Origin: an uncultured archaeon
GTDB lineage: Archaea > Asgardarchaeota > Jordiarchaeia > Jordiarchaeales > Jordiarchaeaceae
NCBI GenBank assembly: GCA_964510585.1
Contig: CAZECW010000027.1
Coordinates: 13,595-45,594, forward strand
Direction of reading: 5' to 3'
Length of the DNA stretch: 32,000 bases
The notes beneath the pieces were generated by a model that was not told the DNA's origin, did no database searches, and worked only from the letters and a program-made list of their open reading frames with translations. Below are positions 16,927 to 31,587 of the stretch, one piece after another. Position numbers and translations under genes: made by a program. Every line of letters starts with the position of its first letter. The stretch's first letter is position 1.

Positions 16927-17997
16927 TTGGATGAGATTTACAGAAAGCTGAGAGGGAAGCTCGACCGGGCTCCCATTGGATTTCCAGAAGGCAGAGGAGC
17001 CATCGAGATTCTCAAAAACCTTTTCACCCCCGAAGAGGCGGAACTGGCACTCAAACTCCCTATGATTACCAAATCTCTTGAGGAGATAGCCGCCGAGCTA
17101 AACGAAGACCCCGCAACTCTTAGAGAGAAGCTTGACGGTATGGCGAGTAGAGGAACAGTTTTAGCCGTAGAAAAAGAAGGAAAAAAGCTTTACCGACTAC
17201 TACCCTCCGTGGTGGGATTTTGGGAAACACCCTTCTGGCCAGGAAAAAAGGATGAGAGAACACTAAAGCTTGCTCCACTTTGGAGAAACTACTTTGAAGA
17301 AAAATTCGCTTACGAAGTGGGTGACAGGAAACAGATCATATTCCGCATCATACCCGTAGACATTGCCATATCGCCCAAATCTATGATAACTCCCTTTGAA
17401 GATGTTATCGAGCTCCTCAAACCCTTAAACTATTTTGCAGTTGCCCATTGCCCCTGTAGACAGATTGCAGCCTACACCGGCGATGGATGCGATCACTCAC
17501 TTGAGGTATGCCTTCACTTTGACAGTATTGGAGAATACATGGTAAAACATGGTTTAGCAAGAGAGATAACCAGGGAAGAAACAATAAAAATTCTCAGAAA
17601 AGCCAACGAGGAAGGACTCGTCCACATGACTGATAATCACCAGGGAAAAATCACCACAATATGCAACTGCTGCGGGTGCTGCTGCATATTCTTCAAAATG
17701 CTTAAAGAAATGAACCTACCCAGAGCAGTGGCAAAATCCAACTACGTAAGCAGGGTAGACACCGAGCTATGCGCAGCCTGTGGAACCTGCGCCGAACGCT
17801 GCCCCATGCAAGCAATAAAAGTAGACGACTTCGCAGTAGTAAACGAGGAAAAATGTGTGGGATGCGGAGTCTGCTACCCCACATGTCCACAAAAAGCCAT
17901 AACCCTCGTAAGAAGGCCCGAAGATAAAATCGTAGAAATCCCAGACAGAAAAACATACATAAACAACCTCCTCAAAGAAAAAGGACTAATCCCATAA
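16927..17997 (+). CDS. Iron-sulfur protein with N-terminal HTH-like region, Cys-rich centre and C-terminal 2x[4Fe-4S] ferredoxin domain
   Basis: CPCR...C...CLHF, ICNCCGCCC, CAACGTCAERCP and CVGCGVCYPTCP. TTG start after GGAGG. Confidence 0.85.
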   Translation: MDEIYRKLRGKLDRAPIGFPEGRGAIEILKNLFTPEEAELALKLPMITKSLEEIAAELNEDPATLREKLDGMASRGTVLAVEKEGKKLYRLLPSVVGFWETPFWPGKKDERTLKLAPLWRNYFEEKFAYEVGDRKQIIFRIIPVDIAISPKSMITPFEDVIELLKPLNYFAVAHCPCRQIAAYTGDGCDHSLEVCLHFDSIGEYMVKHGLAREITREETIKILRKANEEGLVHMTDNHQGKITTICNCCGCCCIFFKMLKEMNLPRAVAKSNYVSRVDTELCAACGTCAERCPMQAIKVDDFAVVNEEKCVGCGVCYPTCPQKAITLVRRPEDKIVEIPDRKTYINNLLKEKGLIP

Positions 17998-18281
17998 CTA
18001 GAAACCAACCCCTCTCCTTACCAAAAGTAACAAAACTCTCATAAAAAACAGTACCTACTACAAATTCACCCCTTTTCCCAATCATGACTCCCACGGTTAA
18101 TTCACAAAAAATATTTCAAGCGTATTTGCGCCGCAACAATTGATTATTGGTTCTTCTTGCGGTAATGTTTTATAAGACTGGCGATCCACTATTTTTTGGC
18201 TTGGCAAACAATGAAGTTTTGCATTTGATTTCCAACTCTCACCTGTCACTAAGGGATGTTGGACTTGCGGAGGCTTAATCC

Positions 18282-19247
18282 TTGTTAGTTTTGGGAGTCG
18301 ATGGTGGGGCCACAAAGACTGCATGTGTGGTGGCTGACGAAAATTTTAAGATTTTAGGTGTGGGAGTAGCTGGCTCCAGTAACTACCACGTGGTAGGTGT
18401 GGAAGCAGCCCAGAAGAGTGTTGCCCTCGCCCTCAAGCGAGCCATTCCCCCAAAGCTCAAGCACAACATTGATGTTTGCTGTTTTGGTATAGGTGGGCTT
18501 AACACTAAACGGGACGAAAAGATAATCTCAGGATTTATAAAGCCCCTAGTGTCTGCCAGAAGACAAATATTCGTTAATGATGTAGTTATCGCCTTCCACG
18601 CCGCTACCTGTGGCGAACCCGGAATCGTTATGGTTGCGGGAACGGGATCCATAGCCTACGGAGTTAACCAAGAGGGAAGGGAAGGGGTGGCAGGAGGCTG
18701 GGGATGGCTCATAGGAGACGAGGGAAGCGCATTTTACATAGCTAAAAGAGCATTAATGAGTGCTTCCAAAGCTTATGACGGCCGCGGAAAACCTACAAGC
18801 CTTGTGGAACTCTTCTGCAATCATCTAAAAATTTCTAAGTTTGAAAACATTATCTCCAAAATTTATGAGGAAATGAAGCCCCGCGACCTGGCATCCCTAG
18901 CTCCCCTAGTTACGCAAGCCGCCCAAAACGGAGACGAGGTAGCCCAAAAAATATTGGAGGATGCGGCGAGGGAGCTGGCACTAACAGTTAAAGCCCTAGC
19001 AGAAAGACTAAACATGAAGGGTCGCTTCACCGTGGGAGCGGCGGGCGGCGTTTTCAAATCCCAACCGGTGTGGAGATTCTTCCAGAGCGAAGTTCAAAAA
19101 CAGGTTCCCGGAGCAGAGTTAACTAAACCCTTGGAGTATCCTGTGATTGGGGCCCTAATAATGGGATTCAGAGATCAGAGGGTGATGGTAACTCCAGAGG
19201 TTAGGGAGAAACTGGAAAAGAGTTTGAAAACCTGGCTTGAAAACTAG
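18282..19247 (+). CDS. BadF/BadG/BcrA/BcrD (ASKHA) family sugar kinase, probable N-acetylglucosamine kinase
   Basis: GVDGGATKT phosphate-1 motif, VNDVVIA, AGTGS, GGWGWLIGDEGS, GGVF. Adjacent to nagA and a SIS deaminase. Confidence 0.85.
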   Translation: MLVLGVDGGATKTACVVADENFKILGVGVAGSSNYHVVGVEAAQKSVALALKRAIPPKLKHNIDVCCFGIGGLNTKRDEKIISGFIKPLVSARRQIFVNDVVIAFHAATCGEPGIVMVAGTGSIAYGVNQEGREGVAGGWGWLIGDEGSAFYIAKRALMSASKAYDGRGKPTSLVELFCNHLKISKFENIISKIYEEMKPRDLASLAPLVTQAAQNGDEVAQKILEDAARELALTVKALAERLNMKGRFTVGAAGGVFKSQPVWRFFQSEVQKQVPGAELTKPLEYPVIGALIMGFRDQRVMVTPEVREKLEKSLKTWLEN

Positions 19248-22357: not shown

Positions 22358-22861
22358 TTATTTTATGGGTTCCACTCCGATTATGTCGCTTAGTTTTCCT
22401 TCGGGTTTTTCCTTCCAGACTGCTTGGACTCTCATTCCTATGTGTGCTTCCTCAGGCTTGGCGTTCAGTAGTATTGTTGTGTATTTTGAGTTGGTGCCGT
22501 CAAAATTGACGAGTACCATTATTAGTCTCTCTCCTTCCTTGAGCCAACCCATTTCCACAGGATCCATTCCTAAAACCTTTACTTGTCCCTTCTTTACCGC
22601 CTGACTCAAAGTGAAGGACTTAACTGTGCCCTTATCACTAACTGTCACTCGGGCGTCTATTTTTCTCCAGCATCTACCACAAATATTTCTCATTGGCACA
22701 TATACGAATCCGCAGCCAGTACACAATGATCCAATTATTTTCTTCTGCTTAAATCCCTCAAGGAGCTCCTGGTAGAGCGTAGGTGCCTTATAAACGTAGG
22801 AGCCTACGGGCCACACGCCTTCCACTGCAATTGTTTCTTTTCTTACCTTTTTCGACATCAT
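22358..22861 (-). CDS. DUF35-family Zn-ribbon/OB-fold protein
   Basis: GSLCTGCGFVYVPMRNICGRC, GTVKSFT, HIGMRVQAVW. Last gene of the thiolase-like operon. Confidence 0.88.
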   Translation of the reverse strand: MMSKKVRKETIAVEGVWPVGSYVYKAPTLYQELLEGFKQKKIIGSLCTGCGFVYVPMRNICGRCWRKIDARVTVSDKGTVKSFTLSQAVKKGQVKVLGMDPVEMGWLKEGERLIMVLVNFDGTNSKYTTILLNAKPEEAHIGMRVQAVWKEKPEGKLSDIIGVEPIK

Positions 22862-22862
22862 C

Positions 22863-24119
22863 TCACCACCTTAATCTTGGTGTATCCCCCAGAACTGTTA
22901 CTACTGTGAAGTTGGTTGAGCCTCCCCAACCGTGTGCTACTGCGTTCTTTACGTCTTTAGGCACTTGGTGTTCTTCAGCTTTACCCATTATTTGTAGGGC
23001 GCACTCCGCTACTCTCTGCATTGCTGAGGAGCCTATGGCATTGGTTGAGAGCACGCCTCCTGAGGGGTCGATTGGCAATTTGCCATCTATTTCTGTTTCT
23101 CCCTCCTCGAGGGGAATCCAGGCCTTTCCGTCGTCAAAGAGAAGAAGTCTCTCCGAATACATCAGTTCCTGGTGTGGGAATGGTTGGTAAATCTCAGCTA
23201 CATCAATCTCTTCTCTGGGATTCTTTATCCCAGCCATACGGTAGGCCTTCATCGCCGCAATTCGACACTGCATCTGCTCCGAAGTATCCAATATGGATAC
23301 TCCTTGAGCGTTTTCCGCCTGCTGATTCTCCTCATCGGCGCAAGCCGCAAGACCTCTCACCCAAGCTGGTCTATCAGCTTTCCTCGCTATTTCTTCAGAT
23401 GCAATCACAATGGCTGAGGCTCCATCACTTGCTGGGCAAATGTGTCCAAGCCTTAATGGATAAGCAACAATTTCGCCAAACCGGGGATGTTTTGCTAGGG
23501 ATTCAGCAGTGCAGTTGGGCCACTGAAGATGGGCATACTTATTTTTGGCGGCGTTTCTCCTTGATTTGGCGGCAACCATATCCAAATGTTCGATTTTGCA
23601 TCCAGAGCGGTGCATGTACTCACATGCCTGGTATGCAGAAACGCCTGCGGCTGCGCCAACTCCTCCACCATAGGCAAAGCTGGTTCTTACATCAACTCCA
23701 TTTGCAAGTAGGTGGAACATGTTTGCTAGTCCCACATGGGATAGCCCCATTGTTGCCCCGGGCTCTTTGCTATCTGAGTGTTTTTCAAATCCTATTGCTA
23801 GGACAGTGTCGAAGAGTCCTGAAGCTACCTGGTACATTCCACACTGGGCTACTGAGCCTCCGGTTGTGCCTCCAGTAGCTATTCTGAGTACTGGTTTGCC
23901 CGGTGCGGCGAAGAGGTCTCCACTCCACAATTCTGCTTGGCAGATGCCTCCAAAGCCTTGCATGTTCCCTATGGCAATGGCGTCTATGTCCTCGGGGCCT
24001 AGTTCGGCATCCTCTAGGGCCTTCCAGGCCGCCTCTGCTATCATTTCTGCAGCGTTAATGTCTCTCCTTATTCCATGTTTGGTTTGTCCAACACCAATTA
24101 CTGCAATGTTTCTCCACAC
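22863..24119 (-). CDS. SCP2-thiolase-fold protein lacking the nucleophilic Cys (Ltp3-like, probable aldolase subunit)
   Basis: IAVIGVGQT; GKPVLRIATGGTTGGS with Gly at the usual Cys position; CPASDGA; AEIYQPFPHQE; PSGGVLSTNAIG. The GTG start shares one base with the upstream TAG. Confidence 0.85.
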   Translation of the reverse strand: MWRNIAVIGVGQTKHGIRRDINAAEMIAEAAWKALEDAELGPEDIDAIAIGNMQGFGGICQAELWSGDLFAAPGKPVLRIATGGTTGGSVAQCGMYQVASGLFDTVLAIGFEKHSDSKEPGATMGLSHVGLANMFHLLANGVDVRTSFAYGGGVGAAAGVSAYQACEYMHRSGCKIEHLDMVAAKSRRNAAKNKYAHLQWPNCTAESLAKHPRFGEIVAYPLRLGHICPASDGASAIVIASEEIARKADRPAWVRGLAACADEENQQAENAQGVSILDTSEQMQCRIAAMKAYRMAGIKNPREEIDVAEIYQPFPHQELMYSERLLLFDDGKAWIPLEEGETEIDGKLPIDPSGGVLSTNAIGSSAMQRVAECALQIMGKAEEHQVPKDVKNAVAHGWGGSTNFTVVTVLGDTPRLRW

Positions 24120-25270
24120 TACTCCTCACCTCCCAGAATGAAGACTATGTTTTGCTGGGCGCATATGCCAGTTTGGCCGTGGGCTAGGACTCTCCAAGCT
24201 CCTGGTATTTGGTGGGCTCCAGCTTCTCCCCTTATCTGCATTGTGGCTTCAACTATTCTTATCAACCCTGTGGCAGTTATGGGGTCTGCTGAGAGGGCCC
24301 CACCGCTGGGATTTACTGGCAGTTGACCATCGTTAAAGGTTGCACAGCTATCTATCAGGGTTCCTCCTCTGCCTTCCTCGCAGAAGCCCAGTGCCTCATA
24401 AATCATAAGCTCCTCATGGGCGTATCTTTCTGACACTTCGGCTGCATCTAGTTCTGCGAAGGGGTTCTTTATACCCGCCATTTGGTATGCTTTTTTTGCT
24501 GCGGCTTCGAGTCCCTCGAGCTTGTAAAGTTTTCTATCCCTAATATATGAGTCCTGGCAGCTGCCTACGCCTTTTATCCAAACTGGACAGTCAGAAAGCT
24601 CCCTCGCCTTCTTCTCTGAGGCTAGCACCACTGCTGCGGCCCCATCACTTATGGGAGACATGGTAAGTTCCCTAATGGGGTCACAGTAGAGCTTGGAGCT
24701 TAACACCTCTTCCAGAGAAATTCCGGGCATTCTGCGGTGTGCATGGGGATTCTTAGCGGCGTTGCCCAGATTCTTCACGGATACTATGGCTGCTTCTTCC
24801 TCAGATATGCCGTACTTGTTCATGTATACTCTCGCCTGAATAGCGGCCGCAGAAATGTCGTTTAAAACACCTATTTGCCTATCAAAAGTTGGGTCTAAAG
24901 TGTAGACAGAGATTTGGTGTGGATTGAATGTTGAACCCTGAGTGTTGGCTACTATTAATGCTATGTCGTGTGTTCCTGAGAGTATTTTGAGCATACCGTA
25001 GAAGACGGCGTTGGCTCCATCCATCTCCACCTTGGTGTAATCCTTAAGGTATGCCCCAATGGGCATAACTAGGAAAAGCTCTGAGATGGTTCTTCCCTCA
25101 TAGTAATCGTTTGTGGCGTTAATTACTGTGTCAATGTCCTCCCTTTCAATGCCCGCCATCTTGGCGGCTTCCTTAGCCACCTCAAAAACCATGTCTTCCC
25201 TGGTCATTGGCATGTTTGCCTGATGGTAGGATTGCGCGTACCCAATTATTGCAACTTTTTCCCTCATCAT
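24119..25270 (-). CDS. SCP2-thiolase-fold protein lacking the nucleophilic Cys (Ltp4-like)
   Basis: NDYYEGRTIS...TKVEMDGANAVFYGMLKILSG resembles Ltp4-type sequences as I recall them. Also SPISDGAAA and NPSGGALSAD. Confidence 0.82.
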   Translation of the reverse strand: MMREKVAIIGYAQSYHQANMPMTREDMVFEVAKEAAKMAGIEREDIDTVINATNDYYEGRTISELFLVMPIGAYLKDYTKVEMDGANAVFYGMLKILSGTHDIALIVANTQGSTFNPHQISVYTLDPTFDRQIGVLNDISAAAIQARVYMNKYGISEEEAAIVSVKNLGNAAKNPHAHRRMPGISLEEVLSSKLYCDPIRELTMSPISDGAAAVVLASEKKARELSDCPVWIKGVGSCQDSYIRDRKLYKLEGLEAAAKKAYQMAGIKNPFAELDAAEVSERYAHEELMIYEALGFCEEGRGGTLIDSCATFNDGQLPVNPSGGALSADPITATGLIRIVEATMQIRGEAGAHQIPGAWRVLAHGQTGICAQQNIVFILGGEE

Positions 25271-25279
25271 GTTCTCACC

Positions 25280-25753
25280 TTACTTCTCGGGTTTGAATCC
25301 TTTAATGTCGGAGATTTGGCCTTTGGTCTCCTCCTGCCAGACTACTTTCACTGTGATGCCCTCCTTAAGTTTCTCTGGCTCCACATCTATTAGGGGCATA
25401 AATATTGTTGAATCCGCGTCTTCAAGCTTTATGGCTCCAATCGCTTTAGGCTTTTCCAGATCTCGAAAGTTGCCGTTGCCGTCCAGTTCAACATAGGCAG
25501 TTGTGTAGCCTACCAGAACTCCCCTACCGGAAAGTTCCACTAGGTTGTTTGCGTCCATTTTTGCTGAGCACTTACTACACCATGCTCTTGGAGGAACATA
25601 GGTATAATTGCACTTGGAACATTTGGCTCCCAATATTTTCTTGTTTCCCAGTTCTTTGATGAATCTGTCCATGAGTTCTCCCACAGACCACCTGAACCCG
25701 GCGACAACTGGAATTCCCTTAACCGGTATAACTTCCTCTTTTAATATTTTCAC
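25280..25753 (-). CDS. DUF35-family Zn-ribbon/OB-fold protein
   Basis: LGAKCSKCNYTYVPPRAWCSKC, GRGVLVGYT, VKVVWQEE. First gene of the operon. Confidence 0.88.
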   Translation of the reverse strand: MKILKEEVIPVKGIPVVAGFRWSVGELMDRFIKELGNKKILGAKCSKCNYTYVPPRAWCSKCSAKMDANNLVELSGRGVLVGYTTAYVELDGNGNFRDLEKPKAIGAIKLEDADSTIFMPLIDVEPEKLKEGITVKVVWQEETKGQISDIKGFKPEK

Positions 25754-25810
25754 AAATTAACCCTCCAAAGTAGAAAAACTGCGAAACACTGAAAAGTATT
25801 CATTCGACAC

Positions 25811-25826
25811 ATTTATAAAATTAACG
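25811..25826 (-). promoter_or_regulatory. Candidate BRE/TATA of the DUF35-thiolase operon
   Basis: The minus strand reads CGTTAA-TTTTATAAAT about 60 nt upstream of the start at 25753. Confidence 0.4.
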
Positions 25827-26029
25827 AAAAGAATCGTCAAAAGTTGATCGGATTCTATTCAGAACCATTCTCTTTTTCTGAAGACTCAAAAAATAATGTC
25901 CCAAAGACCCCTTATTAAATTAAAAACAGACACATGACGATAATAATTTTTCAAATTAGTTGAATCTGGAGTGACGCATAGTCTCAAATAAAATTTATAA
26001 ATTTGTGGTTAGCCCTATTGGTCATGTTT

Positions 26030-26594
26030 TGTTGATTTTTCTTGTAGTTCTCTTATCTTGACCACCTCTCCAAGTGTTTTCAAGTTGATGTTTTCTCTTC
26101 TTCGTAGGTTTCTGTGACTACTGGTTTCACACCCCAATATACTTCATTACTTTTTTCTCTCTAAGATCTTCAAACTGTTCTATTACATCCAAATTTACTT
26201 TAGCGATTCGTTTACTATAATATCCTGTAATTTGAATTTTTAGCAAAGCTATCCCAAGCCTTCTTAAGACAGGCCCAAGACCAACGTCAGTGTTAGTTAT
26301 CCTGCTTTAGGGAACAATACCAGTTTTTAAAACATATTCCTCTTCTTCATACAATTTCACTATCCATAAGTTGAAAAAGATCATGCCGCAATATTTCCTG
26401 CCCCAACAGAAAAAGAAAAAAACATTTAGGCAAGACGGATAAAGAGTAGAAGAAAATACTTATGGCTTTAAGTGGACTAAAAACAGTAAAGGGGAAATAC
26501 AGGGCAAAAACAAGAAACAAAACGCTGCCACCGAACAAGTGTAGTAGAGTTTTCTAAGCTGGGGATAGGTTTAACCCCCTTAACCAATTTTCAC
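26030..26594 (-). pseudogene. Degraded YdbS/DUF304-like membrane protein with bacterial PH (bPH_2) domain
   Basis: Pieces across frames: VKIG*..KPIPSL/RKLYY, a hydrophobic stretch, then KLYEEEEYVLKTGIVP*SRITNTDVGLGPVLRRLGIALLKIQITG...EQFEDLREK. This matches the bPH_2 pattern IPxxRIxxVDxxQGPLxRxFGxxxLKIQTAG. Several stops and frameshifts; ends are approximate. Confidence 0.65.
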
Positions 26595-26810
26595 GCCAAA
26601 ACTTTTCAAAAATGTTAACCTCACAAAAAATTTGAAAAACCACCATTAAATAGGCCTTCGCCAATCTGAAACTATAAATAATTTTGCACAGCCAAACGTA
26701 AACTTATCAAACCCATACAAAGCCACAATAAAATTAACCACCAAGCCATTGCAGATGGCTTAAAAAAAGGTACAGGATCAGAACTTTAAAAAAATGGGGG
26801 GAATGCGATT

Positions 26811-27959
26811 TTAAATGGATATGGGGTATTTCCCATATTTTTTGATGGAGTTGACTAGTGCTTCAACGTTTTCTGGTGGAGTGTCCCTAGGCACCTGGTC
26901 GCCGAAGACCATACAGCCCCCTCCAGGAGCCAAGACTTTTATTAGTTTTTTGACGTGGTTTTCTATTTCTTTGGGAGTGCCTTTGCTTATGATTCCCGCT
27001 CTTACCCCGAAGAACCAGGGTTTCTTCAGCCTATTAGACATCTCCTTTATCTTCTCTGGAGGCAGCCAGTCAGACTCCAGCATAACCACCATGCCCACCA
27101 GCGATCCCGTTTTAACCACAACGTCTTCCATGATTTTCTCCCACCCAGGAATTTCCATCACTGGGAAGCCTCCCGCCCACATCATGGGGCCAAGTCTTTT
27201 CATAATCTCTGTCGTGTGCGGAATCACATAGTCGTAGACAAGCTGGGGACTTGTGGGTGGGATGCACGAAAAGGCGTCTGCAAGTGCTGGAAAAGCTGCT
27301 ACACCTCCCAGCGCTTCTTTCTGGGCTTTTACAAATGCTTCGATAACGTCGACACAGAAATCGAGGATTTTGTGGGCGAACTCCGGGTTTTTCCTCGTAT
27401 CGCGTACTAGGTTATTGAATCCCCGGATTTGCACTGCCATAGACCAGGGTGCGGAAGCTACCAAGGTGGTGAAGGCATATTCTCCTAACTTTTCTAAGTA
27501 TAGTTTGGAGCCCTCAATGACATAAGGTCCGCGGCCAGCCTTTGTGAAGTCTGGTATATCTAGTTTTTCCAGGTCCTTGGGCTCCTTGATTAGGGGTTCT
27601 AAAATGACTGGAAAGCTGTCTTCAGGGAATAGCATTTTTGCTCCCAGAGCTTCGGCCTCATAATTGTAGGCGTCGGCAAAAGCTCCTGGTATGTCGAACT
27701 TGTACTTTATTGCTGTAAATAGCTGAGCGTAAATCATTTTCTTGGGATCAGTGCATAGCTCTCTTACAGTTATCCCTGCTACTTTCGCGGCGTGGTCGTG
27801 TATCTGCATAAAGACTGGCATTCTATCTGGCTCTTGGAACATGAATATCTTGGTAAACCGCTCTATTGTGGTGTGGGGTTCTTTTGAGGCCATCTCCTTG
27901 AACTTTTCGGCAAGCTTATTTATCTCAGCATCGATGTTTGCTTCAGTTAATTTAACCAT
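26811..27959 (-). CDS. URO-D-fold (MtaA/CmuA-like) corrinoid-dependent methyltransferase, paralog 1
   Basis: EPDRMPV, YNYEAEALGA, DFTKAGRGP, APWSMAVQIRG, KGTPKEI, APGGG, DTPPEN. Lacks the HemE RQAGR motif. Directly downstream of a corrinoid protein. Confidence 0.85.
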   Translation of the reverse strand: MVKLTEANIDAEINKLAEKFKEMASKEPHTTIERFTKIFMFQEPDRMPVFMQIHDHAAKVAGITVRELCTDPKKMIYAQLFTAIKYKFDIPGAFADAYNYEAEALGAKMLFPEDSFPVILEPLIKEPKDLEKLDIPDFTKAGRGPYVIEGSKLYLEKLGEYAFTTLVASAPWSMAVQIRGFNNLVRDTRKNPEFAHKILDFCVDVIEAFVKAQKEALGGVAAFPALADAFSCIPPTSPQLVYDYVIPHTTEIMKRLGPMMWAGGFPVMEIPGWEKIMEDVVVKTGSLVGMVVMLESDWLPPEKIKEMSNRLKKPWFFGVRAGIISKGTPKEIENHVKKLIKVLAPGGGCMVFGDQVPRDTPPENVEALVNSIKKYGKYPISI

Positions 27960-27973
27960 CCTTTTTTGCCTCC

Positions 27974-28612
27974 TTATGCTTTTACTAGTTTTTTCGCTAC
28001 TTCGACTGCTTCTAGGGCGTCGTTGGCGAAGGCGTCTGCGCCTACCTCTTCAACATGTTTGGGGTAGACTGATGCTCCTCCAATGAGGTATTTTATTTTT
28101 TTTCTGACGCCTGCTTTCTTCATTTCTTCGTTGAGTTTACGGAGTTCGTCTATGGTTGTGGAGATGTATGATGAGGCTCCCACTATTTGTGGGTTCTCTT
28201 TTTTGATGGCTTCTATGAATTTTTGGGGTGAAACATCTGTTCCCAGGTCGACTACATAAAAACCGGCACCGCGAAGCATAGCTACCACAATGTTTTTTCC
28301 AATGTCGTGTACGTCTCCTTGGCAGACTCCCATAACAATTTTTCCGAGGAACTCTTTACTTGCTGTTTGTAGTTGTGGGAGGATTAGCTTCAGCCCCTCA
28401 CTCATTGCCTCCGCAGCCATAACTAGGTCGGGAACGAAGTACTCTTTGTTCTCATATTTTTTGCCAACTTCGTCCATTGCCTTGCCCATACCTTTAATTA
28501 TGTCTATGGGTTTAACTCCCTCTCTTAACAGTTTTTGAACCGCCTCCTTTGTGGCGTCAGATTCACCATTAATTATTGCTTCTTGGAGTTTGCTTAGTGT
28601 ATTTTCAGACAA
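27974..28612 (-). CDS. Corrinoid (B12-binding) protein, MtbC/MttC/MtaC-like
   Basis: N-terminal four-helix cap (GMGKAMDEVGKKYENKEYFVPDL), GDVHDIGKNIV (DxHxxG), DLGTDVS, IGGA. TTG start after GGAGGA. Confidence 0.93.
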   Translation of the reverse strand: MSENTLSKLQEAIINGESDATKEAVQKLLREGVKPIDIIKGMGKAMDEVGKKYENKEYFVPDLVMAAEAMSEGLKLILPQLQTASKEFLGKIVMGVCQGDVHDIGKNIVVAMLRGAGFYVVDLGTDVSPQKFIEAIKKENPQIVGASSYISTTIDELRKLNEEMKKAGVRKKIKYLIGGASVYPKHVEEVGADAFANDALEAVEVAKKLVKA

Positions 28613-28916
28613 AAATCATATCCTCCTTAGGGAAGTTAATCAAGTATTAGCCTTTTTCTAATTATTAAATATTACTATTAATTATTTTTGGCGTGGGAGA
28701 AAACTGTTTTTAGCCGTTTTTTGGTTTCCCGGGAGGGAATGATTAGTTTGTGGGACGAAAATCTCTTCTTTTAAGTTCGTCTTTTGATAAAAATGTTTAT
28801 CGGGGCTGCTTCTGAAAATGTGAGTTAGCCTACTTTGCTGTTCCTTTTTTTGGGTTTGGATCGATTTCCTACGCTTTTTTGGGGTGAGGGTTTCAAGTGT
28901 TTGTTTCCACTTTTTA

Positions 28917-28933
28917 GTGAAAAGATTTATTTA
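28917..28933 (+). promoter_or_regulatory. BRE/TATA upstream of the RHH gene
   Basis: GTGAAAAGA-TTTATTTA, nearly the same as GTGCAAAAGA-TTTATATA upstream of padR. Confidence 0.45.
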
Positions 28934-29003
28934 GTTCCTTTACTACAATAATATGCAGTTTATGTATGGCGATTTGTATGGCACTAAATGGGTGTGGTTT
29001 TCT

Positions 29004-29483
29004 TTGAAGGGCAGACCTAAACTGTTTAAATCAGACCTGGTGAAGGTTACTATAAGGATTCCCGAGAGTTTGAAAAAAAGAATTGAGGAATATGCGGAAC
29101 GTAACAAGATTAATTTTAATGAGGCGACTCGAAGGCTGTTCTTGGGAGGTCTGGAGGGGCCCCGTCTCAGGGAGCAGGGGTTTAACTGGTTTCAGAAGCT
29201 TTTTGAGGGCGCTCAAAACTCTCCCCTCTTTGAGGATTTTAAAGAAGCATTTATCAGGATTCTAGGTGAATTTTTGGGCGGGTATTTAGAGGCGAATCCT
29301 CACGTTTTCGCAGAAAGCATAGCCGGATTTCTTGGGGGTCACCTAAAATATTCTGAGAACGTTTTGGGTCTTGACAAGGGAATGCTGGCTAAGGCGGTTG
29401 CTGGGGGAAATCCTGAGGTACAGAAAAGAATGTCAGAATTAATTGAAAACATGCTGTGGATTATGGAGTGGATTCACAAGTAA
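29004..29483 (+). CDS. Ribbon-helix-helix (CopG/Arc-like) DNA-binding protein with unknown helical C-terminal domain
   Basis: VKVTIRIPESLKKRIEEYAERNKINFNEATRRLF fits the RHH strand-helix-helix pattern. TTG at 29004 preferred over the ORF-track start at 28953. Confidence 0.7.
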   Translation: MKGRPKLFKSDLVKVTIRIPESLKKRIEEYAERNKINFNEATRRLFLGGLEGPRLREQGFNWFQKLFEGAQNSPLFEDFKEAFIRILGEFLGGYLEANPHVFAESIAGFLGGHLKYSENVLGLDKGMLAKAVAGGNPEVQKRMSELIENMLWIMEWIHK

Positions 29484-29516
29484 ACTCGGAGAAACAGATA
29501 CACAAATGGAGGAATC

Positions 29517-29729
29517 TTGAATTTGAACAGATTAGAGAACGTTATTATTTGTGGAGTCTGCAGAAAAACGCGGAAAAACACCGATATCGCCTATGTTGAT
29601 ACACACACAGGGGTTGCAGTTTGCTCAACCTGCGCTTTAAAAATAAGCATGGATCTAGTTGAGCGGGACAAAGAATGCTTAGAAAAAATTGATGAATTCC
29701 TCAAAAACAAGACTGAAAACGAAACGTGA
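29517..29729 (+). CDS. Small C4 zinc-finger protein (ClpX-type finger-like)
   Basis: ICGVCRK...GVAVCSTCA followed by a charged helix. SD GGAGGA immediately upstream. Confidence 0.7.
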   Translation: MNLNRLENVIICGVCRKTRKNTDIAYVDTHTGVAVCSTCALKISMDLVERDKECLEKIDEFLKNKTENET

Positions 29730-30127
29730 AACTGGTAACCTCTCCAACGAGCAATTGCTGAGAAGCCACGTATTGGTCTGTTTGCTCCCCAAAACTTAAG
29801 TAACCCTCTACATGAAAAAATCTTGGAAGACAAGCACAAAATGGAAATCACACTAGAAAATCTGTAGAACCTGATGGCCGAAATAGATTTAGGCTCAACT
29901 GAAGGAATCGAGGAGAAAAATGAAAAATGCTGGAGGTATTTTTAGTCCCACGTTTTATTCCTTTTTTCGCCAAAAGAAGCCCTCATATGGTTCCTTTCGC
30001 AACTGAGGCACAGGCCACCTTTCTGGGGAGAACTTCTTCCAACCAGCCAAAAACAAAAAATGCAAAAAAACTTTTTATGTTCAAACCAAGTTTAGAAATA
30101 TGCTGAAAAATGTGGGGACAGTTTGAG

Positions 30128-30346
30128 ATGATTTTACCCGTACAACTTTTTGGTTACGGATTTCCTTGGTCAACAGTTCTAATAGTTGCATTTTATGCAG
30201 GTGTCATAACGATTTGGGCTCTGGTGGCCCGCTGGGTTTACAAGGATGCAGAAGAGCGTGGTATGGACGCCGTACTTTGGGCGGTTCTAGTATTTTTATT
30301 TGGGCTAATAGCACTTATAATCTATCTAGTTAAGAGACCTAGTTAA
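30128..30346 (+). CDS. Small membrane protein (PLDc_N-like hairpin)
   Basis: WALVARWVYKDAEERGMDAVLWAVLVFLFGLIALIIYLVKRP pattern. Start is 30110 or 30128. Confidence 0.7.
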   Translation: MILPVQLFGYGFPWSTVLIVAFYAGVITIWALVARWVYKDAEERGMDAVLWAVLVFLFGLIALIIYLVKRPS

Positions 30347-30438
30347 AACCAATCCAACCCCGCAGACTCAAAAATAAGAGTAGAGACAGCATACCCGCCG
30401 AGAGATAAAAGCCGCTTCCCAAGAAGCAGGGGATTCGA

Positions 30439-31587
30439 TTATTCGATTGCTATCGGGTATTTTCCATGCTTTTTTATGGAGTTGATGAAGGTCTCGAAGT
30501 TCTCGGTTGGGGTGTCTATGGGGATAGGGTCGCTTATTACAACGCAGCCGCCTCCGGGGCCAAGTATCTTTATTTTGCTTTTAATGTAGTTTTCTATTTC
30601 TTTGGGAGTGCCTTTACTTATGAGAGATGATCCAACTCCGAATGCTAAAGGTTTGCGTAGCCTGTTTGATATTTCCTTGATTTTCTCGGCTGGCATCCAG
30701 TCCGACTCTAACATAATGAGGAAGCCCATTTGCGTTCCACTCTTTGTCACCATGTCTTCCACGATTTGCTCCCACTGCGGAATTTCGCAAACAGGGTAGC
30801 CTCCAATCCACAGTGCCATACCAAGCTTCTTGATGAGTTCTGCTGTGTATGGAAATACGTAGTCGTAGACGATTTGGGGACTAGCTGGAGGGATGCATGA
30901 GAAGGCATCATTTATAGTGGGAACCCCGGCAATCCCCGCTGCTTCCCTCTGGGTTTTCACAAAGACTTCAATAACACCAACACAGAAATCAAGTAGCCTC
31001 TCCACAAATCCCGGATTTTTCCTAGTGTCTTTAACCAAATTGTTGAAACCTCTTAATTGCACCGCCAGTGTCCAGGGACCATTAGCTACTATGCTTAGAA
31101 GACCATAATTTCCCAGTTTCTCTAAATATAGCCTATTTCCCTCCAACACGTAGGGTCCGCGGCCAGCCTTTGTGAAGTCTGGTATTTCCAGCTTTTCCAA
31201 GTCCTTGGGCTCCTTAATTAGGGGTTCAAGGATAACTGGCCAACTGTTTTCAGGATAGGACATTTTTGCTCCCAACGCTTCGGGCTCAAAGTTGTAAAGG
31301 TCAGAAAGGTTGACTACAGTGTCCATCTTGAATTTCACAGCTGTGTAGAGTTGTGCGTAGAGCATTTTTTTGGCATCAGTGCAAAGTTCCCTAATTGTTA
31401 TCCCCGCAATTCTTGCTGAGAACTGGTGCACCGTTGTTGAGACGGGCATTCTGTCCGGCTCTTGAAAAAACATAATCTTTGTGAACCTCTCCAAGAACGA
31501 TTGGGGCTCCCTTGAAACCCTATCCTTAAACTGCTCAGCCAACATATCTATTTCAGCATCAATACTTCCCTGTTTAAATTTGGCCAT
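30439..31587 (-). CDS. URO-D-fold (MtaA/CmuA-like) corrinoid-dependent methyltransferase, paralog 2
   Basis: Colinear with 26811-27959 over its full length (roughly 60% amino-acid identity by eye). A 32-nt identical DNA stretch occurs at 31154-31185 and 27526-27557. ATG after GAGGAG. Confidence 0.85.
   Translation of the reverse strand: MAKFKQGSIDAEIDMLAEQFKDRVSREPQSFLERFTKIMFFQEPDRMPVSTTVHQFSARIAGITIRELCTDAKKMLYAQLYTAVKFKMDTVVNLSDLYNFEPEALGAKMSYPENSWPVILEPLIKEPKDLEKLEIPDFTKAGRGPYVLEGNRLYLEKLGNYGLLSIVANGPWTLAVQLRGFNNLVKDTRKNPGFVERLLDFCVGVIEVFVKTQREAAGIAGVPTINDAFSCIPPASPQIVYDYVFPYTAELIKKLGMALWIGGYPVCEIPQWEQIVEDMVTKSGTQMGFLIMLESDWMPAEKIKEISNRLRKPLAFGVGSSLISKGTPKEIENYIKSKIKILGPGGGCVVISDPIPIDTPTENFETFINSIKKHGKYPIAIE

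Follow-up and report, generated by a model that had tools for sequence, protein, structure and literature searches.

In a 32,000-nucleotide (nt) stretch of DNA from an uncultured Asgard archaeon (the window, here always the full stretch) two paralogous proteins of the uroporphyrinogen decarboxylase (URO-D) fold, termed A and B, are encoded near a MtaC/MtbC-type corrinoid protein. The pair is best explained as zinc-independent substrate:corrinoid methyltransferases (MT-I) of a corrinoid-dependent methyl-transfer system, served in trans by MtrH and RACo and formed by duplication inside one Jordarchaeia/Freyarchaeia genus, an explanation to which a probability of about 0.7 is given as a whole. 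Its basis is observed and consists of the fold, the lack of zinc ligands, the operon coupling of A to the corrinoid-protein gene, the syntenic MtrH and RACo genes of relatives and the occurrence of both partners in the genome; from it we infer the direction of methyl transfer, the action of the partners in trans and the use of different substrates by A and B. A preliminary description of this DNA had likewise taken A and B for MT-I enzymes sharing a corrinoid protein and not for coenzyme M (CoM) methylases, a proposal supported by the same lines of evidence and by scores against MtaA and HemE models that stay below cut-off.

All three genes lie on the minus strand within positions 26811-31587, where the preliminary description had placed their open reading frames (ORFs). 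Paralog A (26811-27959; 382 amino acids, aa) follows the gene for the 212-aa corrinoid protein (27974-28612), which begins with TTG 9 nt after a GGAGG sequence. The junction of these two genes (27960-27973) is only 14 nt long, as read directly from the sequence, with the TAA stop codon of the corrinoid-protein gene leading into a Shine-Dalgarno GGAGG and then 8 nt to the ATG of A, an arrangement which implies co-transcription and coupled translation. Paralog B (30439-31587; 382 aa), proposed as a second MT-I with the same or another corrinoid protein, lies 2.5 kb away from A with a GGAG ribosome site of its own and is 64% identical to A by BLASTP.

Both proteins match PF01208 (A, E = 4.5e-39, 134.9 bits; B, E = 3.3e-35, 122.2 bits; gathering cut-off 23.9), and the AlphaFold model of A (pLDDT 93.2, pTM 0.91) is predicted to be a URO-D (beta/alpha)8 barrel, with Foldseek giving a TMq of 0.75 to MtaA (4ay7) and 0.70-0.73 to HemE structures and with MtsA, MtbA and HemE matched among the Swiss-Prot models. 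TIGR01463, the model of the MtaA/CmuA methylcobamide:CoM methyltransferases, scores 53.2 bits for A and 54.6 bits for B against a cut-off of 235.4, while TIGR01464 (HemE) scores 30.7 bits for A against a cut-off of 302.95 and gives no match for B. A profile search of the PDB with A returned near-equal scores for UROD (62 bits), MtaA (60.5 bits) and the chloromethane:corrinoid methyltransferase CdmB (53 bits), and the protein atlas clusters carry the label 'URO-D family' and nothing more specific.

The zinc ligands of the CoM methyltransferases were located through an MtaA-like paralog from the same genome (C90:7785-8831), which matches solved MtaA 4ay7 with 115.6 bits, aligning LHVCGD on LHICGN and ATGCE on APGCG. 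When the A/B family was aligned by hhalign to an alignment of zinc-type proteins, His-x-Cys fell on E269-I270-P271 of A (VMEIPGW, with VCEIPQW in B) and the distal Cys on D354 (FGDQV in A, ISDPI in B), placements with which MAFFT agreed. The His-x-Cys...Cys ligands are thus lacking in both paralogs, as had been claimed. The position given earlier for the late Cys also stands, while the one given for HxC, at MMWAGG in A and ALWIGG in B, is not upheld by these alignments, being about 8 residues upstream of E269-I-P271. The MMWAGG/ALWIGG segment is modelled by AlphaFold as a beta-strand (residues 260-263) and so might be preferred to E269-P271 as the HxC equivalent in a structural superposition; His or Cys is present at neither site.

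Among 30 Asgard family members the invariant positions are R46, H54, D89, D96, Y98, E101, E103, R143, W172, D187, D228, W261, G263, P271, E295, W298 and D354 (D228, E295 and D354 being invariant or gapped in one row), with N99 and D297 each found in 29 of the 30. The acidic motifs DAFSC and MLESDW and the late Asp (D354) are common to both paralogs, as first described. The only well-kept cysteines, C232 (27/30) and C349 (28/30), are both replaceable.

The placement of A and B within the fold was made by two proxies, the paralogs from the same genome that are anchored to PDB entries for MtaA (C90) and CdmB (C62), and by a tree of 97 family members (quick IQ-TREE, SH-aLRT support). In this tree the ten Asgard rows of the A/B family form one clade (SH-aLRT 100), with separate A-type and B-type subclades, nested in a superclade of 60 rows (SH-aLRT 92) that is otherwise bacterial except for two more paralogs from the same genome (C59 and C206). 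The zinc-type and CdmB-like paralogs fall outside the superclade, which is marked by the motif DxYN[FYI]E[AP]EA (DxYN-x-E-x-EA). CdmB groups with MtoB, MtvB, OdmB and VdmB (PMC13222342), and no close kinship of A to this group was found either by comparison with CdmB (9rui) or in the tree. With 303.6 bits to CdmB for the C62 paralog (C62:51901-53163) against 21.5 bits for A as a single sequence, A and B are to be placed, as judged by sequence comparison, outside the CdmB/MtoB/MtvB/OdmB/VdmB group; single bacterial members of the clade gave no match to CdmB.

A motif scan of species-level genomes confirmed 324 relatives of A and B, mostly from Thermodesulfobacteriota and Chloroflexota, at 27-36% identity. 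Among 400 Asgard genomes the A/B family was found in 4, all of one Jordarchaeia/Freyarchaeia genus, and it is lacking from two other species of that genus, including one whose genome is closed. Within a library of 1.84 billion representatives a single full-length cluster covers the Asgard clade, the next relative being 38% identical. The restriction to one genus together with the nesting among bacterial sequences suggests that the family was acquired from bacteria. No characterised member of the superclade was found in the literature, nor any description of an activity for it or of its presence in Jordarchaeia/Freyarchaeia; papers on Freyarchaeia and Jordarchaeia discuss MtrH, MtrAH and MttB-like genes and do not mention the URO-D branch of A and B.

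Gene order in relatives ties the family to corrinoid proteins (CP) and to MtrH. Three loci (L001-L003) with proteins 95-97% identical are syntenic with the window, and an A-type gene beside a corrinoid protein is conserved throughout L001-L007. At 73-75% identity the relatives lie in CP-UROD-MtrH-CP-UROD or CP-MtrH...UROD clusters. In two of these (L004 and L005, 73-74% identity) the row is made up of a CP, a CdmB-like UROD, MtrH, a second CP and the A-type UROD, and in Ca. Jordarchaeum madagascariense (L008) a CP-MtrH pair lies about 1.6 kb upstream of the UROD. Taken together, pairing with a corrinoid protein was seen in every fetched Asgard locus with an A-type gene and in about 20 fetched bacterial loci, among them that of Thermacetogenium (L015), where a sigma-54 activator is followed by CP, UROD, MtrH, DUF1638, CP and UROD. 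The strongest argument for A and B as MT-I comes from the bacterial loci of the superclade, at least six of which, among those fetched, are CP-UROD-MtrH-RACo operons. The flanks of the two that were scanned (L055 and L058) hold no MttB, MtaB or other MT-I family, so that the URO-D protein is the sole MT-I candidate there, with MtrH as the second methyltransferase (MT-II) and RACo as the activase.

In the window itself no MtrH or RACo, nor remnants of either, was detected by tblastn below E = 1, which bears out the earlier statement that an MT-II and a reactivating ATPase are missing from it. The search of the genome for such partners, which had been proposed as a check, found both. Four full MtrH genes are present, on C29, C99, C208 and, as an MtrA-MtrH fusion, on C71, alongside two RACo genes (C99 and C33); MtaC-type corrinoid proteins number about 16 and URO-D-family ORFs 20, some ten of the latter adjoining a corrinoid protein. 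C99 carries a complete set of MttB-like protein, CP, RACo and MtrH, and the MtrH of the L004/L005 cassettes is matched best (563 bits) by the lone MtrH on C29. In the same genome the CdmB-like URO-D protein on C62 (G000:C62:51646-53796, L093; 303.6 bits to 9rui) adjoins a corrinoid protein, and next comes a short fragment of MtrH that contains an in-frame TAG, an arrangement suggestive of a chloromethane- or methoxy-type MT-I system whose MT-II has decayed.

The corrinoid protein of the window is built of PF02607 (B12-binding_2, 70.7 bits) and PF02310 (B12-binding, 84.4 bits) and scores 195.6 bits with TIGR02370, slightly below the cut-off of 215.3. Its His-on cobalamin motif DxHxxG (D100, H102 and G105) is invariant in 21 homologs. 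A predicted complex of A with the corrinoid protein scored 0.58, the best of three controls scoring 0.00, with the runs sharing at least 75% of contacts and with a partner pLDDT of at least 81. In calibration 58 of 80 solved complexes reached the mark set for such predictions, as did 2 of 110 mismatched pairs; of those that reached it, only 7 of the 80 solved complexes and both passing mismatches scored 0.60 or less. As such the modelled complex lends weak support to an interaction of the two proteins.

In the scheme proposed here A or B would bind a methylated substrate in the URO-D-type barrel and offer it to the adjacent corrinoid protein, whose Co(I) cobalamin would take up the methyl group as CH3-Co(III). 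An MtrH-type MT-II encoded elsewhere would transfer this group onto tetrahydromethanopterin (H4MPT) or folate for the Wood-Ljungdahl pathway, and a RACo/RamA-type activase, also encoded elsewhere, would re-reduce corrinoid that had been oxidised to Co(II). The methyl donors of A and B would probably differ.

Systems of this kind are known. URO-D-fold MT-I enzymes without zinc are represented by CdmB of Acetobacterium dehalogenans, the crystal of which contains no zinc and which is unaffected by EDTA or zinc, and by MtvB of Moorella (PMC13222342), and the Mto system is a published case of two MT-I paralogs with one corrinoid protein, such that the missing zinc motif is expected for an MT-I and is no discovery in itself. 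The cavity of CdmB is mainly aromatic and the protein is regarded as a substrate-selecting scaffold for Co(I) attack (PMC13222342). A and B share with CdmB the absence of zinc ligands and keep the invariant W172, W261 and W298, but A scores only 21.5 bits to CdmB as a single sequence and 53 bits as a profile, CdmB at 429 aa has extensions that A and B lack, and A and B have an acidic set (D96, E101, E103, D228, E295 and D354 invariant; D297 29/30), no counterpart of which is mentioned for the CdmB cavity (PMC13222342).

The Mto operon of Methermicoccus shengliensis encodes MtoC, MtoB1, MtoB2, the MtrH-like MtoA and the activase MtoD (PMC8630106), MtoB1 and MtoB2 being O-demethylases from which an MtrH-type MT-II hands the methyl group to H4MPT (PMC8630106; PMC8359953), and homologs of mto were noted for Lokiarchaeota and Helarchaeota too (PMC8630106; PMC8359953). 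The proposed system resembles Mto of M. shengliensis and Archaeoglobus fulgidus in having one corrinoid protein, two URO-D-family MT-I paralogs, an MtrH-type MT-II and a RamA/RACo-type activase, and MtrH stands between two CP/UROD pairs in the Asgard relatives L004 and L005. It differs in that the MtoB/MtvB/CdmB sequence group does not include A and B, the CdmB-like paralogs of the genome (C62 and C32) lying elsewhere in the tree, in that the MT-II and activase are unlinked to A and B, and in that no neighbour of A or B indicates a methoxy-aromatic substrate. With MtaA, MtbA and MtsA (4ay7) A and B have in common the barrel (TMq 0.75) and an MtaC-type corrinoid partner; they differ in the replacement of His-x-Cys...Cys by Glu-Ile-Pro and Asp, in a TIGR01463 score of 53 against a 235-bit cut-off and in the role proposed for them, that of MT-I rather than MT-II. 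The bacterial DxYN[FYI]E[AP]EA proteins of Thermodesulfobacteriota, Chloroflexota, Thermacetogenium and others belong to the same superclade with the same motif, the three inspected members (P0028, P0037 and P0062) also lacking zinc ligands and a subset lying in CP-UROD-MtrH-RACo operons, but they are only 27-36% identical to A and B, and the Asgard residues D354 and E269 are not kept in the members inspected. The Bathyarchaeia 'MtgB' MT1 was considered as a counterpart and set aside, those proteins being about 300 aa long with no homology to known MT1 enzymes (PMC10989822).

Because methyl flow can be drawn in either direction from the same sequences, A and B could be MT-II-type enzymes, passing the methyl group of CH3-Co(III) to a non-thiol acceptor or completing a biosynthetic route in which methyl-H4MPT feeds MtrH, then the corrinoid protein and last an acceptor on A or B. 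The closest solved and Swiss-Prot folds do include the MT-II enzymes MtaA, MtbA and MtsA and the window holds no other methyltransferase, but the thiol-activating zinc site of the same-fold MT-II enzymes is absent in A and B, in relatives the place of the MT-II next to the URO-D gene is already taken by MtrH, and the two scanned four-gene operons would be left without any MT-I, making this reading unlikely. A division of labour, with one paralog as MT-I and the other as MT-II in a self-contained system, would suit a window in which two URO-D-fold genes flank a single corrinoid protein and MtrH is missing. It is very improbable given that A and B are 64% identical with all clade-invariant pocket residues common to both, that B is set apart by 2.5 kb, its own ribosome site and three genes on the opposite strand, and that L008, a species with a single family member, still has MtrH nearby. 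That A and B are no methyltransferases at all and are URO-D-like decarboxylases or binding proteins, placed beside a corrinoid protein by chance, is scarcely credible. Uroporphyrinogen decarboxylases are the best PDB sequence matches, and D96 aligns with the catalytic Asp86 of human UROD; set against this are a HemE score of 31 bits with a 303-bit cut-off, the corrinoid pairing in all fetched Asgard A-type loci and about 20 fetched bacterial loci, and the 14-nt coupled junction of the corrinoid gene and A.

Several points weigh against A and B as MT-I enzymes. No member of the superclade with a measured activity was found, so that the MT-I role is drawn from synteny and from homology at about 30-36% identity, and A and B are only distantly related to the characterised MT-I group (21.5 bits to CdmB). 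Many bacterial members of the clade have no corrinoid protein within 6 kb. With the MT-II and the activase absent from the window these partners must act in trans, and the direction of methyl flow is not readable from sequence.

The preliminary description had further proposed that the differences between A and B concentrate in short blocks that probably line the barrel pocket, a claim which is partly borne out. Windows of 7 residues with at least 6 differences lie at 2-8, 50-57, 88-97, 160-166 and 286-292, and the A-type and B-type subclades have different fixed residues at 25 positions, with clusters at 51-56, 95-102 and 226-227. When positions within 8 residues of strand C-termini (81) were compared with all others (301), the subclade-fixed differences were enriched near the C-termini (10/81 versus 15/301, p = 0.024), whereas all A/B differences pooled were not (34/81 versus 102/301, p = 0.19). 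The pattern would fit different substrate pockets in A and B, and a diversification of substrates between them is plausible.

A more far-reaching proposal, which is tentative and rather doubtful at present, is that the superclade constitutes a third functional class of URO-D-fold corrinoid MT-I enzymes, with a metal-free acidic and aromatic pocket tuned to a class of methyl donor new to the fold. The pocket would be formed by H54, D96, Y98, N99, E101, D228, E295 and D297 with W172, W261 and W298, and in the Asgard proteins also by E269 and D354. Candidate donors would be cationic methyl-ammonium and methyl-sulfonium compounds or O-methylated sugars, for example, which are not yet linked to the fold, and one Jordarchaeia/Freyarchaeia genus of hot springs would have obtained the cassette from bacteria and then duplicated it, so widening its substrate range. 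Among the genes beside A and B no neighbour hints at a substrate, and the bacterial neighbours are heterogeneous. At two of the bacterial loci (L055:10003-10758 and L058:2052-2825) the neighbours include a coproporphyrinogen-oxidase-like and a ferredoxin-dependent bilin-reductase-like protein, with modest matches that are above cut-offs, which hints at tetrapyrrole-derived substrates for some superclade members.

Corrinoid MT-I enzymes determine which methylated compounds anaerobes feed into the Wood-Ljungdahl pathway. The 20 URO-D-family ORFs and the ten or so corrinoid/URO-D pairs of the genome make this Asgard lineage from hot springs look like a non-methanogenic methylotroph of broad range, and A and B open a way into a large part of the fold (324 relatives in species-level genomes, mostly from sulfate reducers and Chloroflexota) in which the identification of one substrate would annotate hundreds of genes at once. 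What is new is this branch, for which no characterised member or known substrate was found, rather than the type of system.

Between B and the corrinoid-protein gene lie three small plus-strand ORFs, encoding a weak ribbon-helix-helix match, a 70-aa Cys-rich protein and a 78-aa membrane protein. The first of these (28953-29483, plus strand; 176 aa) is divergent from the corrinoid operon and may encode a regulator, its membership of the system being uncertain; its match to RHH_1 (E = 0.0056) is under the cut-off, and a gene is called at the same position in the near relatives L001-L003. The AT-rich intergenic region that separates it from the corrinoid operon (28613-28952) is presumed, on reading the sequence, to be a promoter region. 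An Rfam scan of the window gave no match, and a repeat scan returned the A/B paralogy and nothing else.

The window runs up to where its contig ends. Another contig of the genome (G000:C24:14977-15424, L086) matches window positions 31138-31587 in reverse with its final 449 nt at 93% identity, an overlap that takes in the initial third of gene B together with about 70 nt upstream of it, and beyond it C24 encodes an unknown 190-aa protein, an 84-aa ferredoxin and a 278-aa Fer4 protein, as does the region upstream of B in L001. The overlap looks like an assembly break caused by strain variation and not a third paralog. DNA of the window has been found in hot-spring metagenomes from several studies, and none of the sequencing runs listed as containing it is of RNA.

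Downstream of A a gap of 1057 nt (25754-26810) contains no ORF longer than 63 aa and measures 419 nt in the 97%-identical L001, which leaves about 640 nt of extra non-coding or decayed sequence. It is followed on the minus strand (22358-25753) by genes for a DUF35 protein, two thiolase-like proteins and a second DUF35 protein, which stay linked to the methyltransferase genes in this genus only. One of the thiolase-like proteins (418 aa) has Gly (GGTTGG) aligned with the residue that is the nucleophilic Cys in the archaeal thiolase 6esq (ACASG), so that it may be aldolase-like or non-thiolytic. A plus-strand region (16927-19247) begins with a gene for a 356-aa protein (16927-17997) in which a C-terminal 2x[4Fe-4S] domain follows 270 N-terminal residues with no assigned family. 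It ends with a BadF/BadG-type ATPase (18282-19247) that matches the model of the N-acetylglucosamine kinase NagK with 128.7 bits, below the 370-bit cut-off; this match and the adjoining SIS-domain and amidohydrolase genes point to an amino-sugar cluster rather than to a corrinoid activase.

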